NCBI GenBank assembly: GCA_003724275.1
Contig: RHFA01000102.1
Span: 1-33,116, forward strand
Direction of reading: 5' to 3'
Origin: Thaumarchaeota archaeon S13
GTDB taxonomy: Archaea; Thermoproteota; Nitrososphaeria; Nitrososphaerales; Nitrosopumilaceae
DNA: 33,116 nt
In this document: positions 6,301-24,307 of the stretch, one piece after another
How positions within the stretch are numbered: the stretch's first letter is position 1
How the letters are laid out: every line of letters starts with the position of its first letter
The notes under the pieces: generated by a model
Databases searched by the model: none
What the model was told of the DNA's origin: nothing
The model's input: only the letters and a program-made list of their open reading frames with translations
Position numbers and translations under genes: made by a program

Positions 6301-6553
6301 CGTCTTTGAGGGCTGGGAGGGACTCCCCGAGGGCGCCGCCGTCGAGGGCAACACGGCGGCCTTTGCGGCGGACGGCGACGTCTCGGTCACCGCGCTTTAC
6401 CGGCAGGACTATACGGGCGCGCTTGTCGCGGCCCTCGCCGCGATGGCCGGCACCGCGCTCTGGAGGGCCTCGAGGCGGCACGGCGGCGTCTCGCCGGCGT
6501 GGGCCCTGGGCGAGGCGGCGCGCCGCGTGCGCGCGCGGGCGTGGAATCGTTAA
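3302..6553 (+). CDS. Large secreted, membrane-anchored surface protein (Sec-type signal peptide, Ig-like-looking repeats, C-terminal TM anchor)
   Basis: The track ORF is 3155-6553, but ATG 3155 would overlap the upstream gene by 158 nt. A TTG at 3302/3305 gives M(L)ASTARLACAALALALCAPHAALA/QD, a classic signal peptide with an AxA site, and overlaps the upstream stop by only 11 nt. The C-terminus GALVAALAAMAGTALW followed by RASRRH looks like a TM anchor plus basic tail. Ala/Gly/Val/Thr-rich beta-like segments such as TTGADGTFSI and TLRVEAEADG occur internally. Confidence 0.6.
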   Translation: MLASTARLACAALALALCAPHAALAQDAADAPPAPLSLAADGDRSHEAGSSPQSLTLRALSGDGAVGEARLRLELLDAPRSAYCTCGEATTGADGTFSIEWGAAEAGAMTLRVEAEADGHAPAVGRFALTVTGAGSEAPSATIWIPPSMLEGHEYEGVVVAAEARAQGARILLTSGDPESLEVDREAIIHPGDNHAIFGLRALLAGADPVGVFASISGPLVSAESRIYSQNSVPSRLEVVMASNSTISDEVTAYVFALDANGAPARVASETGVRLEAAGSLEAPASAVIPEGGFHARLAVRVNGDGLLHAHATGLEAAGQAITKERRDVELRIGVAPEHAGEDGHATYTVWLEEGGRPHSRHGVLAGQVHTDSTRVAGFLPVSPENSESAALGLRGGVASGTVYTREAGEATITATVPDVGTATARVLVGAAYSANVAAQGEDAAADSGGLEPAPGECSAAPSGAEVDGMRAWVHPSLTSGPATLTVAQYHDSAAHGACAAAIDAREGTGDDEGTGEDCPERDGVPECHAVRHPMEADGRRVSLSVSPPGVDYDASVELLHGSLRSFAASFGVLARDVGNYTLAATATNVGTALANFSAAPPSQPGHSLRVVPLRVAPGGGMQDVALVSVAGPGGALVGAREAFGRPVEATVAGAGIPERTLRISGDSAVLRADLGASTRVTATAPGLGRGTAEIAIPGVVAGVDLALPQSVHLHEEFPFAMHLVDSFGTPLSLAGEAAVAASGLDVDWGARRMSAQRSGNVTLSVLAEHGAHEGSVAVFANTLGLDVRASAATARTGTPFRIDVIASAPDIGIDVSSPIPWERVGASTSIDVTAAVPGTFPVTITASKRGYEPSHETLSVTVEEYAILDVSAEGTDGRALGMRNVTLVTRAHDGAAPEREISLPWRREYRDLASAEVEFPQSHGGSYALLEVTVNGEGHAGGPIALSTGGDTVVRAVYDRSVTVGVEGGPVSGAGAHAYGSLVTLVAEPVEAVPLLAYGVFEGWEGLPEGAAVEGNTAAFAADGDVSVTALYRQDYTGALVAALAAMAGTALWRASRRHGGVSPAWALGEAARRVRARAWNR

Positions 6554-7201: not shown

Positions 7202-7781
7202 CCTGCTATTCGCGACGTCAAACGATCACAAGTACTCCGAGGCCAGCGAAATACTTGGGGGCCACGGGCTGAGCCTCGGCCGCCTCGAGTGCGACCTCGT
7301 GGAGATCCAGTCGCCCTCGCTGAGCGAGATCGCCTCGAAAAAGGCCGCCGACGCGCTCTTGCTCTGCTCGCGGCCCGTCATCGCCGAGGACGCCGGCCTC
7401 TTTGTCGACTCGCTAAACGGCTTTCCCGGCCCCTACTCGGCGTTCGTCCACGCCACGATGGGGTGCGCGGGGGTCCTGCGCGCCATGGCGGGCGGCGCGC
7501 GAACGGCGAGCTTTTGCGCGGCCGTCGCGTACGCCAAGCCCGGCGCGCCGGCCCCGCGCGTCTTTGAGTCGCGCGTGCGCGGCACCATAGCGCACGGCGA
7601 GCTGGGCGACGGGTGGGGATATGACCCGATATTTGTCCCCGAGGGCTCGTCCGAGACGTACGCGCAGATGCCAGACAAGTCGCGCGTCTCGCACAGGGCA
7701 CTCGCGCTGGGAATGCTCGCCGGGTGGCTCACGCGTACGCGGCAATCATGCGCTCGATCGGGCGCCTCGAGTTGCGCATGA
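7185..7781 (+). CDS. Non-canonical purine NTP pyrophosphatase (HAM1/RdgB/ITPase family)
   Basis: Motifs: LLFATSNDHKYSEA, VEIQSPSL, IAEDAGLFVDSLNGFPGPYSA, WGYDPIFVPEG, SHRALAL. ATG 7185 is in frame within track ORF 6948-7781 and overlaps the bud32 stop by 17 nt, so the two are probably co-transcribed. Confidence 0.85.
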   Translation: MPRSPDLLFATSNDHKYSEASEILGGHGLSLGRLECDLVEIQSPSLSEIASKKAADALLLCSRPVIAEDAGLFVDSLNGFPGPYSAFVHATMGCAGVLRAMAGGARTASFCAAVAYAKPGAPAPRVFESRVRGTIAHGELGDGWGYDPIFVPEGSSETYAQMPDKSRVSHRALALGMLAGWLTRTRQSCARSGASSCA

Positions 7782-8742
7782 CGACAATCCTGGAGACCTC
7801 GCTCTCGTCCATGAACTCAAAGGGCCCGCGAACCTCGATTCCGCGCGCAAACTCGCGCACCTCGTCCATCTCTAGCATGCTCTCGCGCTCGAGCCTTTCC
7901 GTAGAGCGGCCCACGTGCATGTAGGACTTTGCCTCGACAAAGTGCGCGCCAGACGACTCTAGCATGCGCGCAAACGCGCCGTGCCCTTTTGCGTCGGCGT
8001 TGTGGCCGCGTATTAGCGTCACGCGGATGACCGTCCGCGTGCCAATCCCGTCAAGCAGCCCGAGCGTCTCGTTCCACCTCTCCCAAGAGTCGGCATAGCG
8101 CGGGCGGTTTATCCGCATGAACGACTCGCGGTCTGCGGCGTTTGCCGAGAGGTAGAGCTGCGTGGGCAGCGCGTCCTCGTCGCGCAGGCGCCGTATCATC
8201 GACGGCTCCTGGCCGTTGGTGACCAAAAAGACGGACTTTGTGGCCTCGAGGGACTTGAGGTGCCTTATGAGCTCCGGCAGGTGGGGGTACATTGTCGGCT
8301 CGCCAGACAGCGATATCGCATAGTGGCTCGGGAGCTGGGCCTCGTCTATGAGGGCCGAGTCTGCGGCCGCGTCGCCATAGTGGCCCATGAGGAGGCGCCT
8401 TCGCTCGGCCATGAGGCCGCGCATCATCTCCTCGGGGTCTGCGGCCCTGGGGGCCTCGATGGCCATCGAGTCGTAAAACTCTACGGGCCGCCAGCAGTAG
8501 ACGCACCTGTTCTGGCAGTGCATCCCGGCCGGCGAGAACTCCATGCACCTGTGGGTCGATATGCCGTAAAAGGAGTGCTTGTAGCACGTGCCGCGGCCCC
8601 TAAAGGACCTCTTTGTCCAGTGGCAGAGGCCCACGGTCCCGTGGTCGGATATGCCATACTTGGCGCGCCTCAGGCGCGCGGCCTTGAGGCCCTCGATCTG
8701 GACTATGCCTTCGGGCTCTGCGACCTCCCCCGAGCAGCTCAA
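7729..8742 (-). CDS. taw1: tRNA 4-demethylwyosine synthase (radical SAM, TYW1/Taw1)
   Basis: Motifs: GLCHWTKRS, TCYKHSFYGISTHRCMEFSPAGMHCQNRCVYCWRP (auxiliary and radical-SAM Cys clusters), ISLSGEPTMYPHL, FLVTNG. The start is TTG at 8742. Confidence 0.9.
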   Translation of the reverse strand: MSCSGEVAEPEGIVQIEGLKAARLRRAKYGISDHGTVGLCHWTKRSFRGRGTCYKHSFYGISTHRCMEFSPAGMHCQNRCVYCWRPVEFYDSMAIEAPRAADPEEMMRGLMAERRRLLMGHYGDAAADSALIDEAQLPSHYAISLSGEPTMYPHLPELIRHLKSLEATKSVFLVTNGQEPSMIRRLRDEDALPTQLYLSANAADRESFMRINRPRYADSWERWNETLGLLDGIGTRTVIRVTLIRGHNADAKGHGAFARMLESSGAHFVEAKSYMHVGRSTERLERESMLEMDEVREFARGIEVRGPFEFMDESEVSRIVVMRNSRRPIERMIAAYA

Positions 8743-8832: not shown

Positions 8833-8845
8833 TAAGTTTAATAAC
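8833..8845 (+). promoter_or_regulatory. TATA-like box TAAGTTTAATAAC for TSP3-repeat gene A
   Basis: The 11-nt core AAGTTTAATAA recurs upstream of all three repeat genes. ATG 8869 lies 25 nt after the core. Confidence 0.6.
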
Positions 8846-8868
8846 CCATCTGCCGGCGCCCCCCCGTG

Positions 8869-11802
8869 ATGTCCGCGAAGGGCCACAGGCTAGGCGTCGC
8901 GATCCTGCTCCTCTCCGTCCTTGCCGCCGCGCCGGCCCACCTCCCGGCCGGCTCGCAGCTGGTTCCTGACATCGACCGCGACGGCGTGCCGGACGCCACG
9001 GACATGTGCCCAAACCTGCCCGAGGACGGCATAGGCGACGCGACAGACGGCTGCCCGTCGCCGAGGACGCAGTGGCACGACTCGGACCGTGACGGGATCG
9101 CCGACGGCGTCGACGAGTGCCCGCTCTCGGCGGAGGTCTACAACGGCATCGAGGACGCCGACGGCTGCCCGGACGCCGCGCCGGGCATAGCCGCGCGCGG
9201 GCCGGCCGACTCGGACGGCGACGGGATTCCAGACGGGATCGACACGTGCCCGACGCGGCCCGAGACGCCGAACGGGATCATGGACTCTGACGGCTGCCCC
9301 GACGAGGCCGCGCCGGGACACGACTCGGACGGCGACGGCATCCGCGACTCGCTTGACGAGTGCCCGTTCGCCGAGGAGACGTTTAACAGGATTGACGACG
9401 CCGACGGCTGCCCCGACGGGGACGCCGGCCTGGCGTCCTCCGCGCCGGACTCGGACGGCGACGGCATCATTGACACTGTCGACAACTGCATACTCGCCGC
9501 CGAGACGCAGAACGGGTTTATGGACCTGGACGGGTGCCCCGACACCGCCGCCGACGCGCTTCCCGACACGGACGGCGACGGCGTGCACGACGGGCTTGAC
9601 ACGTGCCCCGACGAGGCCGAGACGTACAACAGGTTCCTTGACTCTGACGGCTGCCCCGACGAGAGGCCGCCGTACACGTCGGGCATCGGCGTTGACGCCG
9701 ACAGGGACCGCGTGCCCGACGACATCGACGAGTGCCCCGGCGAGGCAGAGCGCTACAACGGCTTTGAGGACGCAGACGGGTGCCCGGACATACCTCCGTA
9801 CGTGACTGTGTTTGACAGGGACTCTGACGGGATTGACGACGCCAACGACGAGTGCCCCGACTCGCCAGAGACATACAACCGGCACGAGGACGCCGACGGA
9901 TGCCCCGACTTTGTGGGCATTGAGAGCATAATCCACGACACTGACGGCGACGGAATCGCCGACCGAATGGACCTGTGCCCAAACCAGCCCGAGACGGCCT
10001 CTGGCGTGCAGCTTGACGGGTGCCCCGACAGGGGCCGCGCGCCGACGCTGGACACCGACGGCGACGGCGTGCCCAACGCGCTAGACGAGTGCCCGTCGTC
10101 ATTTGAGACGTACAACATGATAGACGACGGCGACGGCTGCCCCGACGAGGCGCCGGCCCAGCAGCCGCGCGACGCCGACGGCGACGGCATACCCGACGTC
10201 TCGGACTCTTGCGCGCTCTCGCCGGAGACGCGCAACGGCTACATGGACACCGACGGCTGCCCCGACGACGTCCCGTTTGAGGACACGGACTCTGACGGCA
10301 TAGCCGACCGCCTCGACGCGTGCCCCGACGCCGCGGAGACCTATAGGATAGGCGGGACGATCGACGGCTGCCCCGACGAGGCGACGGACCCCGACACGGA
10401 CTCTGACGGCATAGCCGACCGCCTCGACGCGTGCCCCGACGAGGCCGAGACGCAGAACGGCTTCCTTGACGCAGACGGCTGCCCCGACGAGGTGCCCGGG
10501 GCAAGCGCGGCGACTGACTCTGACGGCGATGGCATACCCGACGCCGATGACCTCTGCGTCGACGCCGCCGAGACGTACAACCAGCTAGACGACGCCGACG
10601 GCTGCCCTGACGTCGTGGTCAGCAGCAGGACGCAAAACCCCGACACCGACGGCGACGGGCTGCCTGACCGCCTTGACCTGTGCCCCTCGATACCCGAGGT
10701 CCGCAACGGCTTTATGGACAACGACGGCTGCCCTGACAGGGGAACGACGGCGGACTCTGACGGCGATGGCATACCCGACTCGCTTGACGAGTGCCCCGCG
10801 GACCCGGAGACGTTCAACCTCGTAGATGACGCCGACGGCTGCCCGGAGGACGCCGCGCCCGGCGGCGTCAACGACGCCGACGGCGACGGCCTCAACGACC
10901 TTGTGGACTCGTGCCCGCTGCGGCCAGAGACGATAAACGCGCACATGGACGACGACGGCTGCCCCGACGAGGTGCCGGCTCCGGACGCCGACTCGGACGG
11001 CGTGCCGGACTCGATGGACCTGTGCCCCGACGAGCCCGAGACGTGGAACCGCCACCTCGACTCGGACGGCTGCCCCGACGAGCGCCGCACGTTTGACGCC
11101 GACTATGACGGGATCCCCGACACCGTCGACGAGTGCCCCGAGCTGCGCGAGCTCTTTAACAACTTTGAGGACGAGGACGGCTGTCCCGACTCGGCCGGGC
11201 CGCCGACAGAGAGGGACACGGACCTTGACCGCATCCCAGACGCCGACGACGAGTGCCCGCTCCAGCCAGAGAGGTACAACGGGTTTGAGGACGCCGACGG
11301 CTGCCCCGACTCTGTCCTCGCCGAGAGGCGCGTCGCCGACTCGGACAGCGACGGGATACCCGACGCCGTGGACAGGTGCCCGACGAGGCCCGAGACTATC
11401 AACGGGATCAACGACAACGACGGCTGCCCCGACAGGGGCTCGACTGTGGCCGACACGGACGGCGACGGCATCCCGAACTCGCGGGACCTCTGCCCCCTCC
11501 AGGAGGAGACGTACAACCGCATACGCGACGCCGACGGCTGCCCTGATGGCGTGTCGCGCGACGGCCCGCCCGTGGTGGACACGGACTCTGACGGGATACC
11601 CGACGCGCAGGACATGTGCCCCGCCGAGGCCGAGGACCGCGACGGCGACCGCGACGCCGACGGCTGCCCCGACGCCGCCGGCCCGCCTGACGCCGACGGC
11701 GACGGCGTGCGCGACGAGGTCGACTCGTGCCCCACGGAGGCCGAGACGATAAACAGGTACATGGACGCCGACGGCTGCCCTGACACGCTTCCGGGAGGCT
11801 AG
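8869..11802 (+). CDS. Secreted thrombospondin type 3-like repeat protein, paralog A (24 units)
   Basis: Signal-peptide-like N-terminus MSAKGHRLGVAILLLSVLAAAPA. It is followed by 24 units of D-x-D-x-D-G-[IV]-x-D-x-x-D-x-C-P-x3-E-x2-N-x3-D-x-D-G-C-P-D, counted by hand as DGCP occurrences. The protein ends five residues after the last unit (..CPDTLPGG) with no anchor domain. GTG 8866 is an alternative start. Confidence 0.85.
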   Translation: MSAKGHRLGVAILLLSVLAAAPAHLPAGSQLVPDIDRDGVPDATDMCPNLPEDGIGDATDGCPSPRTQWHDSDRDGIADGVDECPLSAEVYNGIEDADGCPDAAPGIAARGPADSDGDGIPDGIDTCPTRPETPNGIMDSDGCPDEAAPGHDSDGDGIRDSLDECPFAEETFNRIDDADGCPDGDAGLASSAPDSDGDGIIDTVDNCILAAETQNGFMDLDGCPDTAADALPDTDGDGVHDGLDTCPDEAETYNRFLDSDGCPDERPPYTSGIGVDADRDRVPDDIDECPGEAERYNGFEDADGCPDIPPYVTVFDRDSDGIDDANDECPDSPETYNRHEDADGCPDFVGIESIIHDTDGDGIADRMDLCPNQPETASGVQLDGCPDRGRAPTLDTDGDGVPNALDECPSSFETYNMIDDGDGCPDEAPAQQPRDADGDGIPDVSDSCALSPETRNGYMDTDGCPDDVPFEDTDSDGIADRLDACPDAAETYRIGGTIDGCPDEATDPDTDSDGIADRLDACPDEAETQNGFLDADGCPDEVPGASAATDSDGDGIPDADDLCVDAAETYNQLDDADGCPDVVVSSRTQNPDTDGDGLPDRLDLCPSIPEVRNGFMDNDGCPDRGTTADSDGDGIPDSLDECPADPETFNLVDDADGCPEDAAPGGVNDADGDGLNDLVDSCPLRPETINAHMDDDGCPDEVPAPDADSDGVPDSMDLCPDEPETWNRHLDSDGCPDERRTFDADYDGIPDTVDECPELRELFNNFEDEDGCPDSAGPPTERDTDLDRIPDADDECPLQPERYNGFEDADGCPDSVLAERRVADSDSDGIPDAVDRCPTRPETINGINDNDGCPDRGSTVADTDGDGIPNSRDLCPLQEETYNRIRDADGCPDGVSRDGPPVVDTDSDGIPDAQDMCPAEAEDRDGDRDADGCPDAAGPPDADGDGVRDEVDSCPTEAETINRYMDADGCPDTLPGG
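8968..11784 (+). repeat. In-frame tandem coding repeat array, about 111-129 nt period (TSP3-like units) in paralog A
   Basis: The GACGGCTGCCC(C/G/T)GAC (DGCPD) core recurs 24 times. Units are imperfect at the DNA level except for the repeat pair at 10282/10393. Confidence 0.85.
10282..10441 (+). repeat. Perfect 49-nt direct repeat (10282-10330 and 10393-10441), offset 111 nt
   Basis: Both copies read gacacggactctgacggcatagccgaccgcctcgacgcgtgccccgacg. They encode DTDSDGIADRLDACPD in adjacent units. Flanking bases differ on both sides. Confidence 0.95.
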
Positions 11803-11881
11803 GGGCCCGCGCGATCGGCCTGATCGCAGGCCCCGCGCGGCCGCGCCGCGCCCATGGGCGCCCCGGGGCCGAATCCACCGA

Positions 11882-11894
11882 GAAGTTTAATAAT
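11882..11894 (+). promoter_or_regulatory. TATA-like box GAAGTTTAATAAT for TSP3-repeat gene B
   Basis: Same core as at 8833 and 13760. ATG 11920 lies 27 nt after the core. Confidence 0.6.
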
Positions 11895-11919
11895 CCCGCA
11901 CCGGGGGCGATCGGCAGTA

Positions 11920-13677
11920 ATGCGCAGCTATTGGGCACTGCTGGTGGCCGTGACGCTCGTGGCGTCTGCCCCCGCCGGCGCCCTTGCGCAGTACGGGGAC
12001 TCTGACATCGACTCTGACGGGGTTCCAAACGCGATCGACTCCTGCCCCCACGTCCGCGAGGACTTTGAGGGCGAGATCGACGGCTGCCCGTCGGACTTTG
12101 TCCAGTGGCAGGACTCTGACGCCGACGGCATAGAGGACAGGGTCGACGAGTGCCCCGCGGCCAGGGAGACGTACAACCGCCACCTCGACGCCGACGGCTG
12201 CCCGGACAGGGCGCCGGACACGGGGCGCTCGGTCACAGTCGACACGGACGGCGACGGCGTCATTGACATGCTTGACGTGTGCCCGACGACGCCAGAGACC
12301 CCCAACGGCATCCTCGACGGCGACGGCTGCCCGGACGGCATGGCGCCGGCGACGGACAACGACGAGGACGGGGTGCCAGACGGCGTTGACGCGTGCCCCT
12401 TTGAGCAGGAGACCTACAACCGGCACATGGACGGCGACGGCTGCCCCGACGAGGTCGAGGACGAGCGCGCGCAGTTCGAGTTTCCCGACGCCGACGGCGA
12501 CGGCATAGACGACAGGTGGGACCAGTGCCCCAACGAGGCCGAGAACCGCAACTCGTACCTCGACGGCGACGGCTGCCCCGACGAGCCTGGCGCCGAGTCT
12601 GACGCCGCAATGGCAGACTCGGACTTTGACGGAATACCGGACTCTGAGGACGCCTGCCCGGAGGACCGAGAAAACTTTAACCGCCACCTCGACGAGGACG
12701 GCTGCCCGGACACGCTGGACCTCACAACGTCCGCCGACACGGACCTTGACGGGATACTTGACAGCGTGGACATGTGCGTCCTTGTCGCCGAGGTCTACAA
12801 CATGGTCGACGACGAGGACGGCTGCCCGGACACGGTGCCCGTGGGCATCAACACGCCAGACTCGGACGGCGACGGGATATTTGACGCGGTGGACACGTGC
12901 CCCATAACGCCAGAGAACCGCAACGGCGTGCTAGACACGGACGGCTGCCCCGACTCTGATCCCATAGTCGGCGACTCGGACGTCGACGGCATACCCGACG
13001 ACAGGGACGAGTGCCCAATGGAGCCCGAGACGCACAACAGGTTTGAGGACGGCGACGGCTGCCCCGACTTTGTCGCCGATGACAGGGAGCAAAACCCCGA
13101 CACCGACGGCGACGGGCTGCCCGACCGCCTCGACCTCTGCCCCTCTGTCCCCGAGACGCGCAACGGCATACTCGACACGGACGGCTGCCCCGACAGGGGA
13201 ACCGTCCCGGACACCGACGGCGACGGGATACCAAACGACATGGACGCATGCCCGTCGCAGCTCGAGACGTTCAACATGATCGACGACTCTGACGGCTGCC
13301 CCGACGAGACGCCGGCGACGGCGGTCAACGACGCCGACGGCGACGGCATAGACGACATATCTGACATGTGCGCGCTGGTCCCGGAGAACCGCAACGGCTA
13401 CATGGACGATGACGGGTGCCCTGACATCCGGCCCCCGCCGGACGCCGACTCGGACGGCGTGCCCGACGGGGCCGACGCGTGCCCCGAGATGGAGGAGACG
13501 CGCAACGGCTACATGGACGCCGACGGCTGCCCCGACGAGCTTGCCCTCTCGGACGACCAGGCCGACACGGACAATGACGGTATCCGCAACTCTGCTGACG
13601 AGTGCCCCTCGGAGCCCGAGACGTGGAACAAGTTCGCCGACGATGACGGGTGCCCGGACTCGTTTCCGGAGGGCTAG
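11920..13677 (+). CDS. Secreted thrombospondin type 3-like repeat protein, paralog B (14 units)
   Basis: Track ORF 11854-13677. ATG 11920 gives MRSYWALLVAVTLVASAPAGALA/QYGD (signal peptide with AxA site), followed by 14 DGCP units. Ends ..CPDSFPEG with no anchor. Confidence 0.85.
   Translation: MRSYWALLVAVTLVASAPAGALAQYGDSDIDSDGVPNAIDSCPHVREDFEGEIDGCPSDFVQWQDSDADGIEDRVDECPAARETYNRHLDADGCPDRAPDTGRSVTVDTDGDGVIDMLDVCPTTPETPNGILDGDGCPDGMAPATDNDEDGVPDGVDACPFEQETYNRHMDGDGCPDEVEDERAQFEFPDADGDGIDDRWDQCPNEAENRNSYLDGDGCPDEPGAESDAAMADSDFDGIPDSEDACPEDRENFNRHLDEDGCPDTLDLTTSADTDLDGILDSVDMCVLVAEVYNMVDDEDGCPDTVPVGINTPDSDGDGIFDAVDTCPITPENRNGVLDTDGCPDSDPIVGDSDVDGIPDDRDECPMEPETHNRFEDGDGCPDFVADDREQNPDTDGDGLPDRLDLCPSVPETRNGILDTDGCPDRGTVPDTDGDGIPNDMDACPSQLETFNMIDDSDGCPDETPATAVNDADGDGIDDISDMCALVPENRNGYMDDDGCPDIRPPPDADSDGVPDGADACPEMEETRNGYMDADGCPDELALSDDQADTDNDGIRNSADECPSEPETWNKFADDDGCPDSFPEG
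11998..13659 (+). repeat. In-frame tandem coding repeat array (TSP3-like units) in paralog B
   Basis: 14 hand-counted DGCP units with the same unit architecture as paralogs A and C. Confidence 0.85.
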
Positions 13678-13759
13678 GGCATGACGGGCATGGCGACACC
13701 GGCAGGCCAGCGCGGAGCGGCGCCGGGCGTGCGGCCCGCGGCCGGCCCGGGGGGGCCGC

Positions 13760-13772
13760 GAAGTTTAATAAA
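13760..13772 (+). promoter_or_regulatory. TATA-like box GAAGTTTAATAAA for TSP3-repeat gene C
   Basis: Same core as at 8833 and 11882. ATG 13798 lies 27 nt after the core. Confidence 0.6.
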
Positions 13773-13797
13773 GAAGCGCGCGCGCAGCGCCGCGAAG

Positions 13798-16584
13798 ATG
13801 GGCAGATGCTGGGCGATCATGGCGCTGGCCGCCACGCTGCTCGTGTCGCTTCCCGCCGGCGCGATGGCGCAGGCGCCGGAGATTGACATCGACGGCGACG
13901 GCGTGCCGGACTCTGTAGACGAGTGCCCGCACGTCCTCGAGGACCGCGTCGGCGAGATCGACGGCTGCCCCTCGGACTTTGTCCCGTGGTACGACACGGA
14001 CAACGACGGGATCGAGGATCGCCTCGACCTCTGCCCGACCGTAAAGGAGCGCTACAACAGGCACCTTGACGAGGACGGCTGCCCGGACGTCGTGGTTGAG
14101 AGGGGCAGCGCCTCGCTGGCCGACACGGACGGCGACGGGTTTATCGACGTGCTCGACTCGTGCCCAAACGAGCCCGAGACGCCCAACGGCATACTCGACG
14201 GCGACGGCTGCCCGGACGACTATGTGCCACTGACGGACAATGACGAGGACGCCGTGCCGGACAGCGTCGACGCGTGCCCCTTTGAGCAGGAGACATACAA
14301 CCGCTTCATGGACGGCGACGGGTGCCCCGACGAGGTCGAGACGGAGCGCACGCAGTTCGAGTTTCCCGACAGCGACGGCGACGGCATAGACGACCGGTGG
14401 GACCAGTGCCCCGACGAGGCCGAGAACCGCAACTCGTACCTTGACTGGGACGGGTGCGCCGACGAGCCGGGCTTCACCTCGCGCGGCGCAGTCGACACGG
14501 ACTATGACAGCATTCCAGACTCTGAGGACAACTGCCCGGAGGAGCGCGAGATCTTTAACGGGCTGCTCGACTCTGACGGCTGCCCCGACGAGATCGCCGT
14601 CGAGCTGACCGGCGACATGGACCGCGACGGCGTCGCCGACAATGTCGACCTCTGCCCGCTGAGCCGCGAGGTCTACAACATGGTCAACGACGAGGACGGC
14701 TGCCCGGACACGGTGGCCGTCGGCTCGGTCACGCCCGACAGCGACGGAGACGGAATATTTGACATCGTCGACGTCTGCCCAATCACGCCCGAGGTGGTAA
14801 ACGGCTACATGGACACGGACGGCTGCCCAGACTCGACGAGGGCCGCCGGCGACGCCGACTCGGACGGCATAGCCGACCCTGATGACCTCTGCCCTACGAG
14901 GCCCGAGACATACAACAGGTTTGAGGACAGCGACGGGTGCCCGGACGACGTCGTGGCAGCCGCCACGGCCTTTGAGTTTCCCGACACCGACGGCGACGGC
15001 ATAGAGGACAGGTGGGACCAGTGCCCCAACGTGCCCGAGAACCGCAACTCGTACCTTGACTGGGACGGCTGCCCGGACACGCAGGGATATGACACGCAGA
15101 GCACGGCGCCGGACTCGGACTATGACGGCGTGCCCGACCCTGACGACCTGTGCCCCGGCATAGGCGAGCGCTACAACGGCTTTATGGACGAGGACGGCTG
15201 CCCTGACATCCCGCAGGTCCCGCGCAGCGGCGACGCGGACTTTGACGGCATCCTCGACCACGTCGACGAGTGCCCGCGCGAGCGCGAGACGTTCAACAGG
15301 ATCAACGACGGCGACGGCTGCCCCGACGGGGAGGAGACCGAGTTCATCGCGCCTGACAGCGACGGCGACGGCATTCTTGACGCGGCCGACTCGTGCCCGT
15401 CAAGGGCCGAGACGATCAACGGCATAGCCGACACGGACGGCTGCCCTGACCCCGACGCCGTCTCGGCTGACACGGACGGCGACGGCGTGCCGGACTCTGT
15501 AGACGAGTGCCCGACGTCCTTTGAGACGTACAACGCCATAGACGACGCCGACGGCTGCCCTGATGACAGCTCGGTCGCGCAGGCCCCCGAGTACAGCCCC
15601 GCTGACACCGACGGCGACGGCGTGCCGGACATGCGCGACCAGTGCCCAGAGGAGGAAGAGACGGCCAACGGCTACCTTGACTGGGACGGCTGCCCGGACA
15701 CCATGATCGAGCGCGCCTCGCAGACGGGTGACACCGACAGGGACGGCATCCCCGACCACGCCGACAGGTGCCCAATGGCCGCAGAGCGCTACAACGGGTT
15801 CCACGACGCCGACGGCTGCCCCGACATTGCGCCCTATGCGCCGTCGGCCTCGATGGACTCGGACTCTGATGGCATCCCGGACACAGCCGACGAGTGCCCC
15901 GGCGAGTTTGAGACGTACAACATGCACGAGGACGGCGACGGCTGCCCTGACACCGTGCTTGCGGGCAGCCAGATACCAGACACCGACGGCGACGGCATCA
16001 TTGACGTCTCTGACGTGTGCCCGACGCTGCGCGAGACGGTCAACGGCGTCAACGACTTTGACGGCTGCCCCGACGGCGTCGCGCCGCGCGGGGACGCCGA
16101 CTCGGACGGCGTGCCGGATCCCGACGACGAGTGCCCGCTAGAGCCCGAGACGCACAACAGGTTTGAGGACGCCGACGGCTGCCCCGACGAGGCCCCGACC
16201 GAGCGGGTCGGCTTTTCATACCCCGACACCGACGGTGACGGCCTCGATGACAGGCTTGACCAGTGCCGCACGGCCCCCGAGACGCCCAACGGCTACCTCG
16301 ACGGCGACGGCTGCCCCGACGTGATACCGGCCGGCCCGCTAGAGCCGACCAGGTCTGACACGGACGGCGACAACATACCCGACGGCGTGGACCTCTGCCC
16401 CGCGGCGCCAGAGACGTGGAACAAGTACCGCGACCACGACGGCTGCCCCGACACGACGCCCGAGCAGATGCGCCACCTCCTCGACTCGGACGCCGACGGC
16501 GTGCCGGACACGGCGGACATGTGCCCCGCCGAGGCCGAGGACCGCGACGGCGTCTCAGACGCCGACGGCTGCCCTGACCCCTAG
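13798..16584 (+). CDS. Secreted thrombospondin type 3-like repeat protein, paralog C (22 units)
   Basis: Track ORF 13681-16584. ATG 13798 gives MGRCWAIMALAATLLVSLPAGAMA/QAPE (signal peptide), followed by 22 DGC[PA] units. Ends ..DADGCPDP directly at the stop. Confidence 0.85.
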   Translation: MGRCWAIMALAATLLVSLPAGAMAQAPEIDIDGDGVPDSVDECPHVLEDRVGEIDGCPSDFVPWYDTDNDGIEDRLDLCPTVKERYNRHLDEDGCPDVVVERGSASLADTDGDGFIDVLDSCPNEPETPNGILDGDGCPDDYVPLTDNDEDAVPDSVDACPFEQETYNRFMDGDGCPDEVETERTQFEFPDSDGDGIDDRWDQCPDEAENRNSYLDWDGCADEPGFTSRGAVDTDYDSIPDSEDNCPEEREIFNGLLDSDGCPDEIAVELTGDMDRDGVADNVDLCPLSREVYNMVNDEDGCPDTVAVGSVTPDSDGDGIFDIVDVCPITPEVVNGYMDTDGCPDSTRAAGDADSDGIADPDDLCPTRPETYNRFEDSDGCPDDVVAAATAFEFPDTDGDGIEDRWDQCPNVPENRNSYLDWDGCPDTQGYDTQSTAPDSDYDGVPDPDDLCPGIGERYNGFMDEDGCPDIPQVPRSGDADFDGILDHVDECPRERETFNRINDGDGCPDGEETEFIAPDSDGDGILDAADSCPSRAETINGIADTDGCPDPDAVSADTDGDGVPDSVDECPTSFETYNAIDDADGCPDDSSVAQAPEYSPADTDGDGVPDMRDQCPEEEETANGYLDWDGCPDTMIERASQTGDTDRDGIPDHADRCPMAAERYNGFHDADGCPDIAPYAPSASMDSDSDGIPDTADECPGEFETYNMHEDGDGCPDTVLAGSQIPDTDGDGIIDVSDVCPTLRETVNGVNDFDGCPDGVAPRGDADSDGVPDPDDECPLEPETHNRFEDADGCPDEAPTERVGFSYPDTDGDGLDDRLDQCRTAPETPNGYLDGDGCPDVIPAGPLEPTRSDTDGDNIPDGVDLCPAAPETWNKYRDHDGCPDTTPEQMRHLLDSDADGVPDTADMCPAEAEDRDGVSDADGCPDP
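13885..16578 (+). repeat. In-frame tandem coding repeat array (TSP3-like units) in paralog C
   Basis: 22 hand-counted units. The first nine are collinear with those of paralog B. Confidence 0.85.
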
Positions 16585-17606
16585 CCGCTAATCCAGCCGA
16601 GCCTTCTAAAGTAGAGGTACATTATGCCGGCGGGCACGACTGAGGCCAGTATGACAAGGAGGAACGTCGTGTGCGGGCCGCCGCCCCCAGAGTCGCCGCT
16701 TCCGCCGGGAAGGCTGACGTTCATCCCATAGAACGTCCCTATCACGGTGGCGGGTATGGCCAGCGTGAATATGATGGTCAGGACGGCGAGGACCTTGCTG
16801 GCCTTTTCCGTGCTTAGGACAAAGTCGGTGTCCTTGTAAATCTCCATGGTCTCCTTTGACTCCTCGAGCGTGTCTATGGCCTTGTCAATGTGGTCTATCA
16901 CGTCGTCAAAGTGAAGCGTGAGGTCCTCTCCCGGAGAGTAGCTCGCAATGTTCTTGGCGGCCCCGAGGACTATGCGCTTTAGGGGGCTGGCTATCCTCCG
17001 CAGGACGGTGATCTCGCGCCTGAGGACGTGGATGTCCTTTGCGACTGACTTGCTCTCGTCAAAGACGTCGTCCTCTATGTCGTCAAGGTTTGCCATCACG
17101 CGCCGCAGCGTGTGGAGCAGGTCGTCCACTAGCACGTCGATTATCTCGTGGAGGAGGACGGCCGTGGAGCTTGACATGAGGCGATCGCGCCTCTCGGGGT
17201 CAATGCCCCCCTTGCATGCCCTCACCAGGTCGACGAGGGGCTTTAGGTTTCCCTGGTGGACCGTTATGAGAAAGCCCCTGCCCACGAATATCGAGAGCTG
17301 GTTGTGCTTTGGTATGGCCTCCTTTGCCACGATTGGGGGAAAGTGGAGTATGAGGAACATGTGGTCAGAGTACGCGTCCAGCTTTGGAAGCTCGAACTTT
17401 GTCAGGCAGTCCTCCACGTTCAGGGCGTTAAAGCCGTACTCTGCGGCCAGCCTCTCGACGTTCTCCCTGTCGGGGTTTTGCAGGTCAATCCACACAAACC
17501 CCCTGCCGTCCATCCTCTCGACCTTGCGCTCGTCGAGGGCACCGTCGTCCCTGGGCCTCCTCCTCCTGCCCGACCAGAGCCTCTTTGCTATGGAGCTGCG
17601 GCTCAT
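16581..17606 (-). CDS. corA: CorA-family magnesium/cobalt transporter
   Basis: C-terminal LAIPATVIGTFYGMNV (the YGMN signature between two TM helices) and a CorA-like soluble N-terminal domain (FVWIDLQNPD, FLITVH). Its stop shares the palindrome CTAG (16581-16584) with the stop of paralog C. Confidence 0.9.
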   Translation of the reverse strand: MSRSSIAKRLWSGRRRRPRDDGALDERKVERMDGRGFVWIDLQNPDRENVERLAAEYGFNALNVEDCLTKFELPKLDAYSDHMFLILHFPPIVAKEAIPKHNQLSIFVGRGFLITVHQGNLKPLVDLVRACKGGIDPERRDRLMSSSTAVLLHEIIDVLVDDLLHTLRRVMANLDDIEDDVFDESKSVAKDIHVLRREITVLRRIASPLKRIVLGAAKNIASYSPGEDLTLHFDDVIDHIDKAIDTLEESKETMEIYKDTDFVLSTEKASKVLAVLTIIFTLAIPATVIGTFYGMNVSLPGGSGDSGGGGPHTTFLLVILASVVPAGIMYLYFRRLGWISG

Positions 17607-17693: not shown

Positions 17694-18725
17694 ATGGGCA
17701 GGACACGCAAGCCCGCGCCCCGCGCGAGGCCCTCGGGAAACACGCCCCGCGCCGACCTCGTCCTGCGCCGCCTTGTTGACGAGTTCAAGAGCGGGGGGAT
17801 CACCGAGACCATCAGCAAGGTGGCCATCCTGAAGGACCCCAACGACAACCGCCCGTGCATGTCATGGTCCCTCAAGAACCGCGTGCTCATGGTGGGGCAG
17901 GGCACGTTTGACGCCAGGAACGTCGCGCAGTGGAACAGGGTCAACCGCAGGGTCATCGCGCGCAGGTCTGCAATCTATATCATAAAGCCGCTCTATGCGT
18001 ACTCGTGCGCGCACTGCGCAAAGGGCGCCGCGCGCGAGGCGCACCTCCGCTACGCAAGGCCATCGGGCCTCTTTGAGTGCGCGGCATGCGGCCTCTCGGT
18101 GGAGCCGCGCGCGGTCCGCGGCGGGTCTGATCCTGCCGTCCTGCGCAGAATCCGCGGGTTTGGGTGCCAGCCGGAGTTTCGCGTCGAGGACACGGTGGGC
18201 GACGCGCTTCCCGAGTACGCGCCCGCACGCCCGCCGCCGCTCCACGGCGTCGCCGCAAAGTGGGGCATACAGGTCAAGTACCAGGTGGATCCGAGCGGGT
18301 CGAGCCTTGGAAGCTATGAGGCGCGCTCGAACACCATACACCTCGGCACCGAGAGCCCTTGGGTCTTTTTTCACGAGATAAGCCACGCCGCAGACAGCAT
18401 GGTCCTTGCGCGCTCGGGGCGCGCGCTAAAGGGCGGCCAGGATCCCATCCAGGAGGCCGTCGCGCAGCTCTCGGCATGCGTCCTCTCAGAGATGTACGGC
18501 ATGGGCTCCACTCGCGCGCACACGCGCGACTATATCCGCGCCCAGGCCAGGGGATCAGGCGAGCGCGAGCTCGTGCGCCTCGCGCTTGACGTGCTAGACA
18601 GGGTCGAGGGCGTGCTTGGCCTCATTCTCTCCACGGCGCAGGAACTTGGCGGCGCCACGGCGTCAGGCCAGGAGGATGGCCATTGCGGCGACGGCGCACG
18701 AGCCGGCAAAATACGGGACCATTAG
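17694..18725 (+). CDS. ArdC-like protein: ArdC-N-like ssDNA-binding domain, CxxC...CxxC zinc ribbon, and C-terminal HExxH zincin metallopeptidase domain
   Basis: The N-terminal half (PCMSWSLKNRVLM ... ARNVAQWNRVNRRVIARRSAIYIIKP) resembles the ArdC-N pattern (PY.G.N..LL ... W.TF.QA..LGG.V.KGEK). CAHC...CAAC is a zinc-ribbon-like insert. The C-terminal FFHEISHA followed by QEAVAQLSACVLSEMYGM resembles the ArdC/polyvalent-protein metallopeptidase motif HE..HW...EELVAELGAAFL. Confidence 0.6.
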   Translation: MGRTRKPAPRARPSGNTPRADLVLRRLVDEFKSGGITETISKVAILKDPNDNRPCMSWSLKNRVLMVGQGTFDARNVAQWNRVNRRVIARRSAIYIIKPLYAYSCAHCAKGAAREAHLRYARPSGLFECAACGLSVEPRAVRGGSDPAVLRRIRGFGCQPEFRVEDTVGDALPEYAPARPPPLHGVAAKWGIQVKYQVDPSGSSLGSYEARSNTIHLGTESPWVFFHEISHAADSMVLARSGRALKGGQDPIQEAVAQLSACVLSEMYGMGSTRAHTRDYIRAQARGSGERELVRLALDVLDRVEGVLGLILSTAQELGGATASGQEDGHCGDGARAGKIRDH

Positions 18726-19358
18726 CGGGATCACGGATATGACATACTCTGTCCGGGCCATGATCTCCGCCGAGTCCGGCGGGCCGGGAAGGAGGGCCAG
18801 CCTCCTGCGCCCCCCGCGCGTCACCTCGCCCGCAAAGCAAAACCTCTCGCCCCGCCTCCTCCGGCGGACCACGAGGAGCGCGGCGGCCTTGCGGATCGCC
18901 GGCTCGTCAACGCCGCCAAATATGCTCCCCGTGCGCGCAAGCTCGGCGAGGTTTGGCACGACGGTGCGCGCAATGTGCGCGGCCCCGGCGGCCAGGGCGG
19001 CCACGAGCATGGCCACGGGAAGGGCGGGAATCCCCGCCGCGCTGGGGACCAGGACGCCAGAGATGGCGATCATGGCCGCGTCCCCCCTGGCCACCAGGGT
19101 GCCGCGCAGCGACATGGCGCCCACGGCGCACGCGACGCCCATCCACGCGGCGTCGTGCGGCTGCGGCCACGCCCCCTGCGCGGCCCAGCGCACGGCGAGG
19201 AACGCCGCGCACGCGACTCCCATGAGCGCCAGGGCCCAGTGCGGGATTCCGCGCTCGCGCAGGTCATAGAGCGCCGCCACTCCCACCATGGACGCGGCCA
19301 GGACGGCGCCTGCGGCGGCCCCGTCTAGCAACCCGCGTCCCCCGCCGCGCACGCGCAC
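18663..19358 (-). CDS. Archaeal prepilin/preflagellin peptidase (aspartic peptidase family A24, PibD/FlaK-like)
   Basis: Polytopic hydrophobic protein with two candidate catalytic Asp motifs, YDLRERGIP and ARGDAAMIAISG, about 60 residues apart, as in A24 enzymes (D...GxGD). The second motif is ARGD rather than GxGD. The track start is GTG 19358. An alternative TTG at 19331 would put the first Asp at residue 23. Confidence 0.65.
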   Translation of the reverse strand: MRVRGGGRGLLDGAAAGAVLAASMVGVAALYDLRERGIPHWALALMGVACAAFLAVRWAAQGAWPQPHDAAWMGVACAVGAMSLRGTLVARGDAAMIAISGVLVPSAAGIPALPVAMLVAALAAGAAHIARTVVPNLAELARTGSIFGGVDEPAIRKAAALLVVRRRRRGERFCFAGEVTRGGRRRLALLPGPPDSAEIMARTEYVISVIPLMVPYFAGSCAVAAMAILLA

Positions 19359-20143
19359 GTGATCAGCCGCGAGGCGCCCTCGAGCGTGTCGCGCTCGTCA
19401 ATGACGGCGTGCAGGGACGAGAGGACGTGGGAGTTTCGCGCAAAGAGCGGGTGCGCGTGGTCCGGGGATATTATGGCGCAGCGCATGCTCTTGTTGACCG
19501 TGATCATCCCCTGCCCCTCGAGCTCCCAGAGGGCGCGCATGATCTTGGTCTTGCTGCACTCTGGAAACTTTCGGGCGCACATCATTGCGGTGCACGGGAT
19601 GGACATGACTGCCCTTGTGCGCCTGACGCCGGCATGGCATGCGCACCCGTCGCCGCAGACCGTGGCGTTCTCTGGCCTCTGTGCGCCGTACGAGCTCACA
19701 ACCGAGGCCACGCACAGCGCAAAGGGGCTGAGGCGCCACCGCAGCGCAAACGCCGCCCACCGGCCCGCAGGGGTGAGCCTCATGCAGACCATCTTTTTCC
19801 GGTCGCCGGGCACGGGGATTCCCATCCCGCGCGCGTCAGTCAGCAGCACAAACCCCTCGGGCATGTCCGCGCGGCCTGCGCACCTCTCAACCTCCACAAG
19901 GCACGTCGAGCGCATCATGTCGCGAAAGCCCCTAAACCCGCGCATCTCGCCGTGCAGGACTGCCATGCTTGAAGTCCCGGAGCTCTCGCCCACGAGCAGC
20001 AGGATGAGGAGCCTGTGCAGGCGCCCGCCGAGCTTCACCCCCCTGACGCCCAAGAGCCCGCCGGCGCCGCTCGTGCGCGCGCCTCGCGAGGCGGGGACAA
20101 ACGTCCCGTCCTCAAAGCTTCTCTGAACTGAGGATGCACACAT
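19325..20143 (-). CDS. Cys-rich hypothetical protein with a possible C-terminal winged-helix segment and a degenerate P-loop-like motif
   Basis: It sits in an overlapping minus-strand gene chain. Composition is balanced, unlike the Ser/Pro/Arg-rich plus-strand ORF 19359-20126, which shares wobble positions and is probably its shadow. LLILLLVGESSGTSSM resembles a Walker A context lacking the Lys. KTKIMRALWELEGQGMITV looks wHTH-like. Cys clusters: CGDGCACH, CTAMMC, CACAAGDAGC. Confidence 0.45.
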   Translation of the reverse strand: MCASSVQRSFEDGTFVPASRGARTSGAGGLLGVRGVKLGGRLHRLLILLLVGESSGTSSMAVLHGEMRGFRGFRDMMRSTCLVEVERCAGRADMPEGFVLLTDARGMGIPVPGDRKKMVCMRLTPAGRWAAFALRWRLSPFALCVASVVSSYGAQRPENATVCGDGCACHAGVRRTRAVMSIPCTAMMCARKFPECSKTKIMRALWELEGQGMITVNKSMRCAIISPDHAHPLFARNSHVLSSLHAVIDERDTLEGASRLITCACAAGDAGC

Positions 20144-21227: not shown

Positions 21228-22054
21228 TACCTGACGTCCCCCCTCACGGAATCAAAGACGCGGTTTCCCAGGACGGCGCGAAAAGTGCCCCTCGTGCGGT
21301 TCTTTTCGCTCATCGAGGCCGGGAACGTCGAGTACTTTTGGCGTGCCTTCCTCCACAGCATCTCCCTGTCACGGCCGTCGAGGCCAAGGTTCCTCGACGC
21401 CGCGTTGAGAAAGGTGTTAAAGTAAAAGCCAGGCGCACTGTACCCGCTGTAGAGGCCGAGCCTCCTCGCGTCGACTGCGAGCATGCCGTATATCTTTAGG
21501 GCGCTGTGGGTGCTCCGGAGGTTGCAGCAGTCCCCGATGGCGGCCCGCAGGTCGGCCTCGTTTATGACGCATGCGCCCCTCTCGCGGCACGTGTTGTAAA
21601 AGGCGAAAAACAGTATGTGTGACGGGCGGTGGCCCGTGTTGCGCCTGAGCCTGGAAAAGACAAACTCCACCTCGCTCCTCACGGACTCCATGATCCCAAA
21701 GCGCTCGGCAATGTGGCGTATCCTCTGGCGCCACACGCGGTCCGCATTGCCCTTCCCGTACACGACCCTTGCCTTGCCGCGCAGCCTCGGGCTTGCGGTC
21801 CCTAAAAGCTCCGGCACGCCTGCGGCGCCCCGCAGGGGGGCAGTGCGCCCGTCATCCTCGTGCGAGGAGGCTCCTGCCCACTCTATCCTCCCCACGACAT
21901 TCCCAAACACCCTGCACACAATCTCGCCCTCCCCCTCGCACTGGACCAGGCAGCGGGTCCCGTGATACGCGCACCTCGACTCTGGCGCCTGCGGGTGCCG
22001 TGCGGCGCCCCCAAAGGCGGCCATGCGGGAGTTTTGCGCCTGACGCGTCTCCAT
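21224..22054 (-). CDS. Divergent TFB/TFIIB-like transcription factor paralog with a degenerate zinc ribbon
   Basis: CAYHGTRCLVQCEGEGEIVCRVFGNVVGRIEW aligns to the TFB ribbon/B-reader pattern CPEC....L..D...GE.VC..CG.V..E..., but with CxxH and Phe replacing Cys ligands. LLGT is linker-like. The cyclin-like core SHILFFAFYNTCRERGACVINEADLRAAIG compares with AA.LY.ACR..G.PRTL.EI. Confidence 0.55.
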   Translation of the reverse strand: METRQAQNSRMAAFGGAARHPQAPESRCAYHGTRCLVQCEGEGEIVCRVFGNVVGRIEWAGASSHEDDGRTAPLRGAAGVPELLGTASPRLRGKARVVYGKGNADRVWRQRIRHIAERFGIMESVRSEVEFVFSRLRRNTGHRPSHILFFAFYNTCRERGACVINEADLRAAIGDCCNLRSTHSALKIYGMLAVDARRLGLYSGYSAPGFYFNTFLNAASRNLGLDGRDREMLWRKARQKYSTFPASMSEKNRTRGTFRAVLGNRVFDSVRGDVRY

Positions 22055-24282: not shown

Positions 24283-24307
24283 ATTGCGCGGCGGCGCGCG
24301 CCCCGGA

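Follow-up and report, generated by a model that had tools for sequence, protein, structure and literature searches.

Three tandem TT3R genes of a high-GC ammonia-oxidising archaeon: a new member of a known Nitrosopumilaceae family

Ammonia-oxidising archaea rank with the most abundant cells of the sea, and little is known of the composition of their outer surface. We analysed a 33,116-nt stretch of DNA (the window) from a high-GC Cenarchaeum/'Cenporiarchaeum'-type ammonia oxidiser of the Nitrosopumilaceae, in keeping with the archaeal host named in the original prediction. Three consecutive genes in this window encode little besides tandem Asp- and Cys-rich repeats, which the original prediction, made from the sequence alone, read as thrombospondin (TSP) type 3 repeats (TT3R). 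What are these proteins, and does a triplet of such genes represent a new archaeal system?

Genes, repeat unit and predicted export

The locus, with a GC content of 68%, comprises three open reading frames on the + strand (8866/8869–11802, 11854/11920–13677 and 13681/13798–16584). Gene 1 (8869..11802) encodes 977 aa, a length also given by gene callers on other assemblies (978 aa with the GTG at 8866), with 24 units and 48 Cys; gene 2 (11920..13677) encodes 585 aa with 14 units and 28 Cys; and gene 3 (13798..16584) encodes 928 aa counted from its ATG, in a frame open from 13681, with 22 units and 45 Cys. The counts of DGC[PA] cores first made for this tandem triplet (24, 14 and 22; 60 in all) proved exact. 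Past the last unit only short tails remain: TLPGG in gene 1, SFPEG in gene 2 and a single P in gene 3 (C-terminus DGCPDP). An identical gene 2 product is predicted on JGI contig Ga0131755_100004, and P0126 (MDD9810054.1) matches the gene 2 N-terminus at 99% identity. Units 1–8 of gene 3 are colinear with units 1–8 of gene 2, the two blocks being 78% identical at the nucleotide level. On one side, the gene for the wyosine radical-SAM enzyme TYW1 (7729..8742, − strand; Pfam Wyosine_form and Radical_SAM) is divergent from gene 1; on the other, a CorA Mg2+/Co2+ channel gene (16581..17606, − strand; Pfam CorA) is convergent and overlaps the gene 3 stop by 4 nt.

A TATA/BRE-like box, AAGTTTAATAA, precedes gene 1 (8834..8844, + strand; 24 nt upstream of the ATG at 8869), gene 2 (11883..11893, + strand; 26 nt upstream of the ATG at 11920) and gene 3 (13761..13771, + strand; 26 nt upstream of the ATG at 13798). 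The exact 11-mer occurs in three copies on the + strand of the window, versus 0 expected by chance; the spacing at gene 2 and the box at gene 3 are kept in the Cenarchaeum MAG (L008) described below. The proposal that each gene has its own promoter is thus supported by one identical promoter-like box 24–26 nt before each ATG. The start first given for the array, 8833, corresponds to the promoter box and not to a start codon, because a copy of AAGTTTAATAA lies at 8834 and the ATG at 8869.

The core of the unit is 32 aa long (DxDxDG[IV]xDxxDxCPxxxExxNxxxDxDGCPD), with 16 invariant or near-invariant positions; whole units span 37–45 aa and are joined by linkers of 5–13 aa rich in A, P, V and T. 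As originally described, most units have two Cys, typically 15 residues apart: the pair is present in 59 of the 60 units and the 15-residue gap in 56. The segment DxDxDGxxDxxDxCP, followed within the unit by a further Cys at fixed spacing, is likewise invariant in 56/60 units. Asp makes up ~20–22% of residues, and the net charge is about −225, −146 and −219 for genes 1, 2 and 3, respectively. The units have diverged from one another, with a mean identity of 20% at the variable core positions. N-x-S/T sequons are absent from the three proteins, largely because the residue class two positions past the conserved Asn is fixed.

The N-terminus of gene 1 (8869..8955, + strand; MSAKGHRLGVAILLLSVLAAAPAHLPAGS, then Q) resembles a signal peptide with a putative cleavage site; it is the sole hydrophobic segment of the protein (KD19 1.95) and can be aligned both with the corresponding peptides of the other two genes and with those of Nitrosopumilus homologues. 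The signal peptides read from the sequence for gene 2 (11920–11988, + strand; MRSYWALLVAVTLVASAPAGALA, then Q) and gene 3 (13798–13869, + strand; MGRCWAIMALAATLLVSLPAGAMA, then Q) close their hydrophobic stretch with AxA before the Gln. None of the three proteins has a second hydrophobic segment, and none of the three signal peptides a lipobox Cys. A lone N-terminal hydrophobic segment, together with TSP_3 as sole Pfam match, is consistent with the view that the products are secreted and anchor-less and carry no extra domain.

Family membership and integrity of the locus

The assignment to TSP type 3 repeats holds, with Pfam, sequence matches to solved structures and fold all in agreement. As foreseen, the proteins match TSP_3 (PF02412), at 191.3, 115.1 and 148.1 bits for genes 1, 2 and 3 against a gathering cut-off of 25 bits; no other Pfam family, including OmpA-like PF00691, matched any of the three. 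Within NCBIfam the best resemblance is to MtsC, a MYXO-CTERM protein of Myxococcus cell–cell cohesion (NF047638; 233, 155 and 190 bits, under the 350-bit cut-off); the scores for TraB (NF033763; at most 100 bits, cut-off 700) and the PA1041 anchor lipoprotein (NF053612; at most 65 bits, cut-off 250) also fall short. Among solved structures, sequence matches were obtained to 5WTL (OmpA TT3R) and COMP. An AF2 model of four units (pLDDT 78) is almost without secondary structure; it is ion-free and has a pTM of 0.31, and the arrangement between units is not readable from it. Its best fold match in the PDB is 5WTL (E 4e-12), with thrombospondin-1 and COMP next, so that the modelling originally suggested for a fragment of 3–4 units also points to TSP type 3 folds.

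A search of all cluster representatives returned 10,336 matches at E ≤ 0.001, of which 183 reached E ≤ 1e-30, and the best were bacterial or fragments of this same locus; the number of representatives matched shows that TT3R-type arrays are common. Alignment A2, a self-alignment of the repeats, consists of 12 non-overlapping fragments. Searching full-length proteins, in a collection from which the window's own proteins are absent, yielded mainly Myxococcota OmpA/TT3R proteins at 35–49% identity.

Repetitive genes often break assemblies, and many of the homologues in the databases are incomplete because they run off the end of a contig; both observations would fit an array of repeats joined wrongly during assembly, or a decaying stretch of repeats that codes for no protein. 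An assembly artefact had been named as grounds for rejecting the original prediction. Six further JGI and ENA contigs, however, carry the 8-kb locus at 99.56–99.85% identity, almost free of indels and with identical gene lengths (L001 and L006 are one contig and were counted once). The units are easy to assemble because they have diverged from one another. Population SNPs are synonymous at 54 positions versus non-synonymous at 6, dN/dS is 0.13–0.19 relative to the Cenarchaeum MAG, and substitutions between orthologues affect 1.4% of invariant core, 14% of variable core and 20% of linker positions; the locus is under strong purifying selection. With an orthologous triplet in this second species as well, we consider an artefact practically out of the question.

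One contig (L007) carries a cluster of nine variants (16206–16293). Intra-locus gene conversion was considered for this tract and rejected, as it matches any other unit at no more than 80%; the tract is slightly nearer to the L008 orthologue.

Orthologous loci and proposed role

The nearest genome, the sponge-derived Cenarchaeum MAG, has the same triplet beside a divergent TYW1, with 24, 14 and 21–22 units and the Cys counts of the window; its gene 1 orthologue (24 units) is 88% identical. A TT3R gene also adjoins TYW1, again divergently, in four Nitrosopumilus-type loci (L009, L010, L011 and L096). The window TYW1 shares 61–67% identity with the TT3R-adjacent TYW1 of the first three, and L096 has this gene too; the conserved TYW1 neighbour marks the locus as orthologous across Nitrosopumilaceae. 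L096 carries three tandem TT3R genes, with at least 50 units, between TYW1 and Dus. A single TT3R gene (709 aa, ending DGCPDSLP) occupies that interval in L009, where copy number may be variable or the single-cell assembly may have collapsed. Alignment A3, which includes Nitrosopumilus L009 and P0024, reveals a signal peptide and an atypical first unit in common with the window proteins, and a locus of 37% GC (L016), among the matches listed in a metagenome scan with the N-terminal alignment, has the family-specific first and last units. Since the downstream gene in the Nitrosopumilus loci is Dus, the CorA adjacency is specific to the lineage of the window; a functional tie between the TT3R genes and CorA was rejected on this ground, and the CorA gene is a neighbour outside the TT3R system.

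In each of three cultured Nitrosopumilus strains, three consecutive genes are annotated as 'thrombospondin type 3 repeat-containing' (OG0007, consecutive IMG ids; Bayer et al. 2019, PMC6593220). The original prediction had taken a triplet of whole TT3R genes to be new and not a described archaeal system. That claim does not stand: cultured Nitrosopumilus strains already have this triplet on record, with an annotation and with detection in the proteome (PMC6593220), and TYW1-adjacent TT3R genes occur in four Nitrosopumilus-type loci, one of them with three in tandem. No new kind of system emerges from the window, and its triplet is a new member of a known family. The locus has been kept from planktonic Nitrosopumilus to high-GC sponge-type lineages. 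The window supplies an entire and error-free copy of it in a divergent lineage, in which the repeat anatomy and start sites are exactly defined, and the conserved triplet and unit numbers are useful for the design of constructs and antibodies.

On balance we favour the view that this lineage has, in the three genes, its own copy of a conserved three-gene Nitrosopumilaceae locus whose products form structural parts of the cell coat or the extracellular matrix. These products are most likely secreted, Ca2+-loaded, disulfide-stapled and polyanionic. A matrix role is suggested by likeness to Myxococcus Mts proteins and by co-induction with envelope proteins in Nitrosopumilus cultures, where two TT3R proteins rose 15–40 times under H2O2 alongside S-layer proteins; matrix remodelling that limits H2O2 influx was proposed, and the induction could merely mean that damaged surface proteins are being replaced (Bayer et al. 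2019, PMC6593220).

Under this cell-coat or matrix reading, each gene would be driven by its own TATA box to give a leaderless or near-leaderless mRNA, and each product would be exported by Sec, after which the signal peptide would be removed. Outside the cell, the 32-aa core would fold around Ca2+ through the invariant Asp, Asn and Glu positions and would be locked by an intra-unit Cys14–Cys30 disulfide, as in the bacterial TT3R structure 5WTL. The outcome would be three long, non-globular, strongly acidic chains of 14–24 calcium-filled beads on short Ala/Pro/Val/Thr linkers, which, being anchor-less, would be held at the surface through Ca2+-mediated or protein contacts alone. There they may serve in cohesion, aggregation or as a diffusion barrier, with output probably raised under oxidative stress. 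In its boldest form, the proposal makes the three proteins the main scaffold of an extracellular matrix that is cross-linked by Ca2+ and peculiar to Nitrosopumilaceae; they would co-assemble outside the S-layer, control aggregation, attachment and oxidant permeability, and have been kept with little change on the move into sponges. We hold this version to be possible but doubtful; if true, it would describe an archaeal extracellular-matrix system without a characterised counterpart.

The induction by H2O2 in three Nitrosopumilus strains, and the reduced influx suggested by its authors (PMC6593220), could also be read as the work of an oxidant shield or redox buffer: with its ~120 Cys and bound metal, a dense coat would slow or consume H2O2 on its way to the membrane in these catalase-poor archaea. 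The abundance of Cys (48, 28 and 45 per protein) fits such a coat, as does an AOA-like relative (P0243) in which a TT3R array is fused to a DsbA-like thioredoxin domain. However, the Cys are expected to lie in stable structural disulfides, which do not scavenge H2O2, and no CxxC-type redox motif was found within the units. A shield of this kind, which overlaps the matrix explanation and does not exclude it, seems to us unlikely.

The net charge of about −146 to −225 per protein, the high Asp content and the CorA divalent-cation channel gene abutting gene 3 would agree with a cation reservoir, in which polyanionic chains buffer Ca2+/Mg2+, concentrate cations such as NH4+ near the membrane or contact mineral surfaces. 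We find this quite improbable: the CorA adjacency is not conserved, carboxylates would already be occupied at the ~10 mM Ca2+ of seawater, where buffering makes little sense, and the strict conservation of Cys, Gly and Pro indicates a defined fold and not a generic polyanion.

It had further been proposed that the proteins imitate sponge matrix. As a sponge-specific effector, they would mimic thrombospondin/COMP of the animal extracellular matrix and attach to receptors of the host or to collagen, thereby aiding settlement in the mesohyl or escape from being eaten. The sponge origin of the nearest genome, a high GC content typical of sponge Thaumarchaeota (PMC6697440) and the homology of the repeats to animal TSP type 3 repeats are compatible with this idea. 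Yet the same locus, of the same architecture and with a similar unit total (at least 50 versus 60), is found both in Nitrosopumilus-type genomes of low GC and in free-living strains in culture. Moreover, the unit is the prokaryotic long form common to Myxococcota and not the animal form, neither the C-terminal lectin-like domain nor the coiled coil of the animal proteins is present, and TT3R are not named among symbiosis features in two comparative papers on sponge Thaumarchaeota (one of them PMC6697440). Because planktonic relatives carry the same locus, we judge sponge-matrix mimicry very unlikely.

Comparison with known systems

Compared with the cell-coat or matrix proteins envisaged here, animal thrombospondin and COMP (2RHP, 3FBY) share Asp-rich Ca2+-binding loops on a Cys-stabilised chain without regular secondary structure, but they are the weaker match (E 9e-5 by sequence; Foldseek probability 0.35–0.69). 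Their signature domain combines the type 3 repeats with EGF repeats and a lectin-like domain at the C-terminus; only the repeat region aligns, and EGF and C-terminal lectin-like Pfam domains were not found in the three window proteins.

The closest solved structure by both sequence and fold is 5WTL, the TT3R linker of Capnocytophaga gingivalis OmpA, which has the same first unit half (DTDGDGIPDxxDxCP) and intra-unit Cys pair as the window proteins. Its unit of ~27 aa is, when aligned, four residues shorter than that of the window and lacks the second DxDG loop, and its five units are periplasmic and joined to an OmpA-like domain, unlike the window proteins. Ca2+ binding of TT3R reportedly depends on the intra-repeat disulfide, to go by the title of a 2017 paper of Dai et al.

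The original statement that bacterial TSP3 repeats occur mostly as short OmpA linkers is incomplete: 5WTL is such a linker, but Myxococcota proteins of 800–950 aa carry long arrays of long-form units. In Myxococcus xanthus Mts and the Myxococcota TT3R outer-membrane proteins, as here, the unit is DxDxDGxxDxxDxCPxxxExxNGxxDxDGCP[DE]. The archaeal proteins differ from MtsC and its Myxococcota relatives in having no MYXO-CTERM tail, N-terminal beta-barrel-like domain or OmpA domain, and in ending 1–5 residues past the last unit; their units are joined by linkers, whereas Myxococcota units usually abut without them. The M. xanthus Mts proteins (mts locus) have been tied to cell-surface matrix and cohesion, according to the passage of PMC6593220 that cites Zhang et al. 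2007.

The Nitrosopumilus TT3R proteins (OG0007 type) differ from those of the window in GC content (~34% versus 68%), in gene size (~700–780 aa each in L096 versus 977, 585 and 928 aa), in number of units (at least 50 in L096 versus 60) and in the downstream neighbour (Dus versus CorA). They share with the window a signal peptide followed by long-form units alone, an atypical first unit (...CPxxxEDxxGxIDGCPS), conserved terminal units (ETWNK..DGCPD...PEQ.R...EDxDG..D.DGCPD-stop), adjacency to TYW1 as read in L009, L010, L011 and L096, and the arrangement of three tandem genes seen in L096 and in the IMG ids of the cultured strains.

Repeat anatomy of the three proteins

An ORF scan of the window identified three long reading frames on the + strand between 8.8 and 16.6 kb (genes 1, 2 and 3, at 8869–11802, 11920–13677 and 13798–16584), with a GC3 of 87–89% in the coding frame. 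[quoted passage not shown] The 60 units are 37–45 aa long, and each consists of a linker of 5–13 residues, rich in Ala, Pro, Val and Thr, followed by a 32-residue core. Aligning the last 32 residues of the units yielded the consensus D-t-D-g-D-G-[IV]-p-D-x-x-D-x-C-P-x-x-p-E-T-y-N-g-x-x-D-x-D-G-C-P-D, with 16 invariant or near-invariant positions. The predicted pair of Cys residues is present in 59/60 units, and the predicted separation of 15 residues in 56/60.

All three proteins belong to Pfam family TSP_3 (191, 115 and 148 bits; cut-off 25), as had been anticipated, and the Pfam search returned no other family for them; NCBIfam added a below-threshold likeness to Myxococcus MtsC, TraB and the PA1041 anchor. 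The sole hydrophobic segment of each protein is N-terminal, ending ...PAGALA/Q in gene 2 and ...PAGAMA/Q in gene 3, and no further hydrophobic stretch lies downstream of it in any of the three. The stop follows the last unit after 5, 5 and 1 residues, consistent with the earlier description of anchor-less proteins built almost entirely of repeats. Asp content is ~20–22%, net charge is about -225, -146 and -219, and there are only 1, 1 and 2 Lys residues. Lys makes up 0.1–0.2% of the putatively secreted proteins of the window (8869–16584 and 3302–6553) versus 2–6% of most cytoplasmic neighbours, with Arg being kept. A scan of the three TT3R sequences found no N-x-S/T sequon, although an AglB/STT3 gene is located at 24281–26596.

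Constraint, age and putative promoters of the genes

The three TT3R genes are genuine and evolve under constraint. Identical copies of the CorA and gene 2 proteins recur on contigs of several JGI/ENA assemblies, where the genes encode 977, 585 and 967/921 aa and the 8-kb region is 99.56–99.85% identical and essentially indel-free; this agreement refutes an assembly artefact, an outcome that the original prediction had named as fatal to it. Among five of these copies, differences within the three genes comprise 54 synonymous and 6 non-synonymous changes. An equivalent triplet is found in the nearest genome to the window, the Cenarchaeum MAG that is the GTDB species representative 'Cenarchaeum sp. 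PNGst_S_binVS4' (RKSK01000076.1), with 24, 14 and 21–22 units and 48, 28 and 45 Cys. Genes 1, 2 and 3 share 88, 88 and 92% amino-acid identity with this triplet at dN/dS values of 0.19, 0.18 and 0.13, and substitutions affect 1.4% of invariant core, 14% of variable core and 20% of linker positions. Window units are only ~20% identical to one another at variable core positions, and the arrays are thus old rather than recently amplified. Genes 2 and 3 are colinear over their units 1–8, with 78% nucleotide identity, indicating an old gene duplication.

One assembly (JGI 3300009913) carries nine variants within 90 nt of gene 3 (16206–16293). No other unit was the source of this tract, the best alternative match being 80%; it is slightly nearer to the Cenarchaeum MAG orthologue. 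The pattern points to recombination with a diverged strain over a short stretch.

The exact 11-mer AAGTTTAATAA occurs on the + strand of the window at 8834, 11883 and 13761 (chance expectation 0), in each case 24–26 nt upstream of an ATG (8869, 11920 and 13798) that reads straight into signal-peptide-like sequence. Archaeal TATA boxes are expected at this distance from the start of a leaderless transcript. The spacing therefore supports one promoter for each gene, as originally proposed, and fixes the likely starts; proteins translated from these would be 977, 585 and 928 aa long. The gene 2 and gene 3 boxes are kept at equal distance in the Cenarchaeum MAG. At 9880–10124 of that MAG's contig, the gene 1 intergenic region and promoter box are absent, and the TYW1 ORF continues directly into gene 1; this reflects a deletion or else a fault in the local assembly. 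A one-mismatch fourth copy of the box, AAATTTAATAA, is found at 22082–22092 (-), immediately upstream of four (-) ORFs (21224–22054, 20112–21227, 19325–20143 and 18663–19358) that lack a clear family assignment, apart from a weak match of the last one to Peptidase_A24 (prepilin peptidase).

Host, neighbourhood and conserved triplets

Genes surrounding the triplet are archaeal; they encode TYW1, aIF2-alpha, AglB/STT3, an A24 peptidase-like protein and functions in cobalamin synthesis. The window's GC of 66–70% matches the 66% reported for 'Ca. Cenporiarchaeum stylissum', found in the sponge Stylissa flabelliformis (PMC6697440). Two large + strand ORFs (223–3312 and 3302–6553; ~1000 and ~1083 aa) lack a Pfam match and probably encode surface proteins: the former has a basic stretch followed by an N-terminal hydrophobic segment (possibly a signal anchor or pilin-like class III signal), whereas the latter contains 18% Ala and only 0.2% Lys and combines a Sec-like signal peptide with a C-terminal TM segment that is followed by a basic tail. 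Elsewhere, an HFX_2341-like/DUF6293 protein (22206–22943, -), with weak likeness to CRISPR-associated Cas_APE2256, adjoins a PIN-domain protein (23006–23419, +).

One database fragment, MDD9810054.1, matches the gene 2 N-terminus at 99% identity. In the single-cell assembly of Nitrosopumilus sp. AH-660-L10, a single 709-aa gene (585–2714), located between TYW1 and Dus, encodes a signal peptide and long-form units only, ending in DGCPDSLP; it is divergent from the adjoining TYW1, an arrangement repeated in two more Nitrosopumilus genomes. A 268-kb, 34% GC contig has the order RIO kinase, TYW1, 6.4 kb of TT3R coding sequence and Dus. This stretch comprises at least 50 units in three tandem genes, two with their own signal peptide visible, in an assembly that carries frameshifts, and it shares with the window atypical units at the start of the first gene and the end of the third. 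Either copy number varies in Nitrosopumilus or the single-gene assembly collapsed repeats. On a 37% GC metagenome contig, two TT3R-only genes lie in tandem, and the second of them comprises 14 units.

The TT3R orthogroup of Bayer et al. 2019 (OG0007) has three consecutive IMG gene ids each in N. adriaticus NF5, N. maritimus SCM1 and N. piranensis D3C, and two TT3R proteins were reported as 15–40 times more abundant upon H2O2 exposure, alongside S-layer and PEFG-CTERM proteins (PMC6593220). It is thus in Nitrosopumilus, from the literature, that expression and H2O2 induction are established. Together, these loci and that study make the window triplet orthologous to one that is conserved in Nitrosopumilaceae, has been annotated and has been detected by proteomics; the claim that it is not a described archaeal system is unsupported. 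The triplet goes unmentioned in two comparative papers on sponge Thaumarchaeota (one of them PMC6697440). A paper citing Wang et al. 2019 mentions, for deep-sea AOA, an extracellular structure that is thrombospondin-like. An AOA-like relative of 554 aa, encoded on a 37-kb JGI contig, fuses ~11 long-form units to a C-terminal DsbA/thioredoxin-like domain (FDCPFC motif), linking the repeats to disulfide formation.

Structure, proposed role and comparison with known repeats

A PDB sequence search matched the Capnocytophaga gingivalis OmpA TT3R linker (5WTL, E 6e-10) and COMP (3FBY). An AlphaFold2 model of four units, built from an alignment of 12 in-register four-unit fragments, all from the window, has a mean pLDDT of 78, a pTM of 0.31 and almost no helix or strand; its best PDB match is 5WTL (E 4e-12, probability 1.0), followed by thrombospondin-1 and COMP. 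The biochemical part of the original interpretation is reasonable, whereas its novelty and its symbiosis-specific ideas are not supported.

We propose that each TT3R gene would be transcribed from its own promoter, that the proteins would be exported by Sec, and that each unit would fold as a Ca2+-dependent bead with an internal disulfide, producing a polyanionic, anchor-less chain retained in a matrix or coat around the cell. Homology to 5WTL and thrombospondin, and analogy with the Myxococcus Mts proteins, are the grounds for inferring Ca2+ binding, disulfides, secretion and a matrix role. A role as oxidant shield overlaps with this matrix reading. Mimicry of a host's matrix, as originally suggested with sponges as an example, is disfavoured because free-living relatives carry the same locus, and calcium or other cation buffering is likewise disfavoured because adjacency to CorA varies between lineages and the sites would already be saturated in seawater.

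Bayer et al. likened TT3R proteins to the Myxococcus mts cluster and to 5WTL (PMC6593220). In our alignment the 5WTL unit falls four residues short of the window unit and has FNG before the second Cys, where the window unit has DxDG; of the two Asp-rich loops originally described, the second therefore belongs to the long-form unit, which is plentiful in Myxococcota outer-membrane proteins of 800–950 aa.
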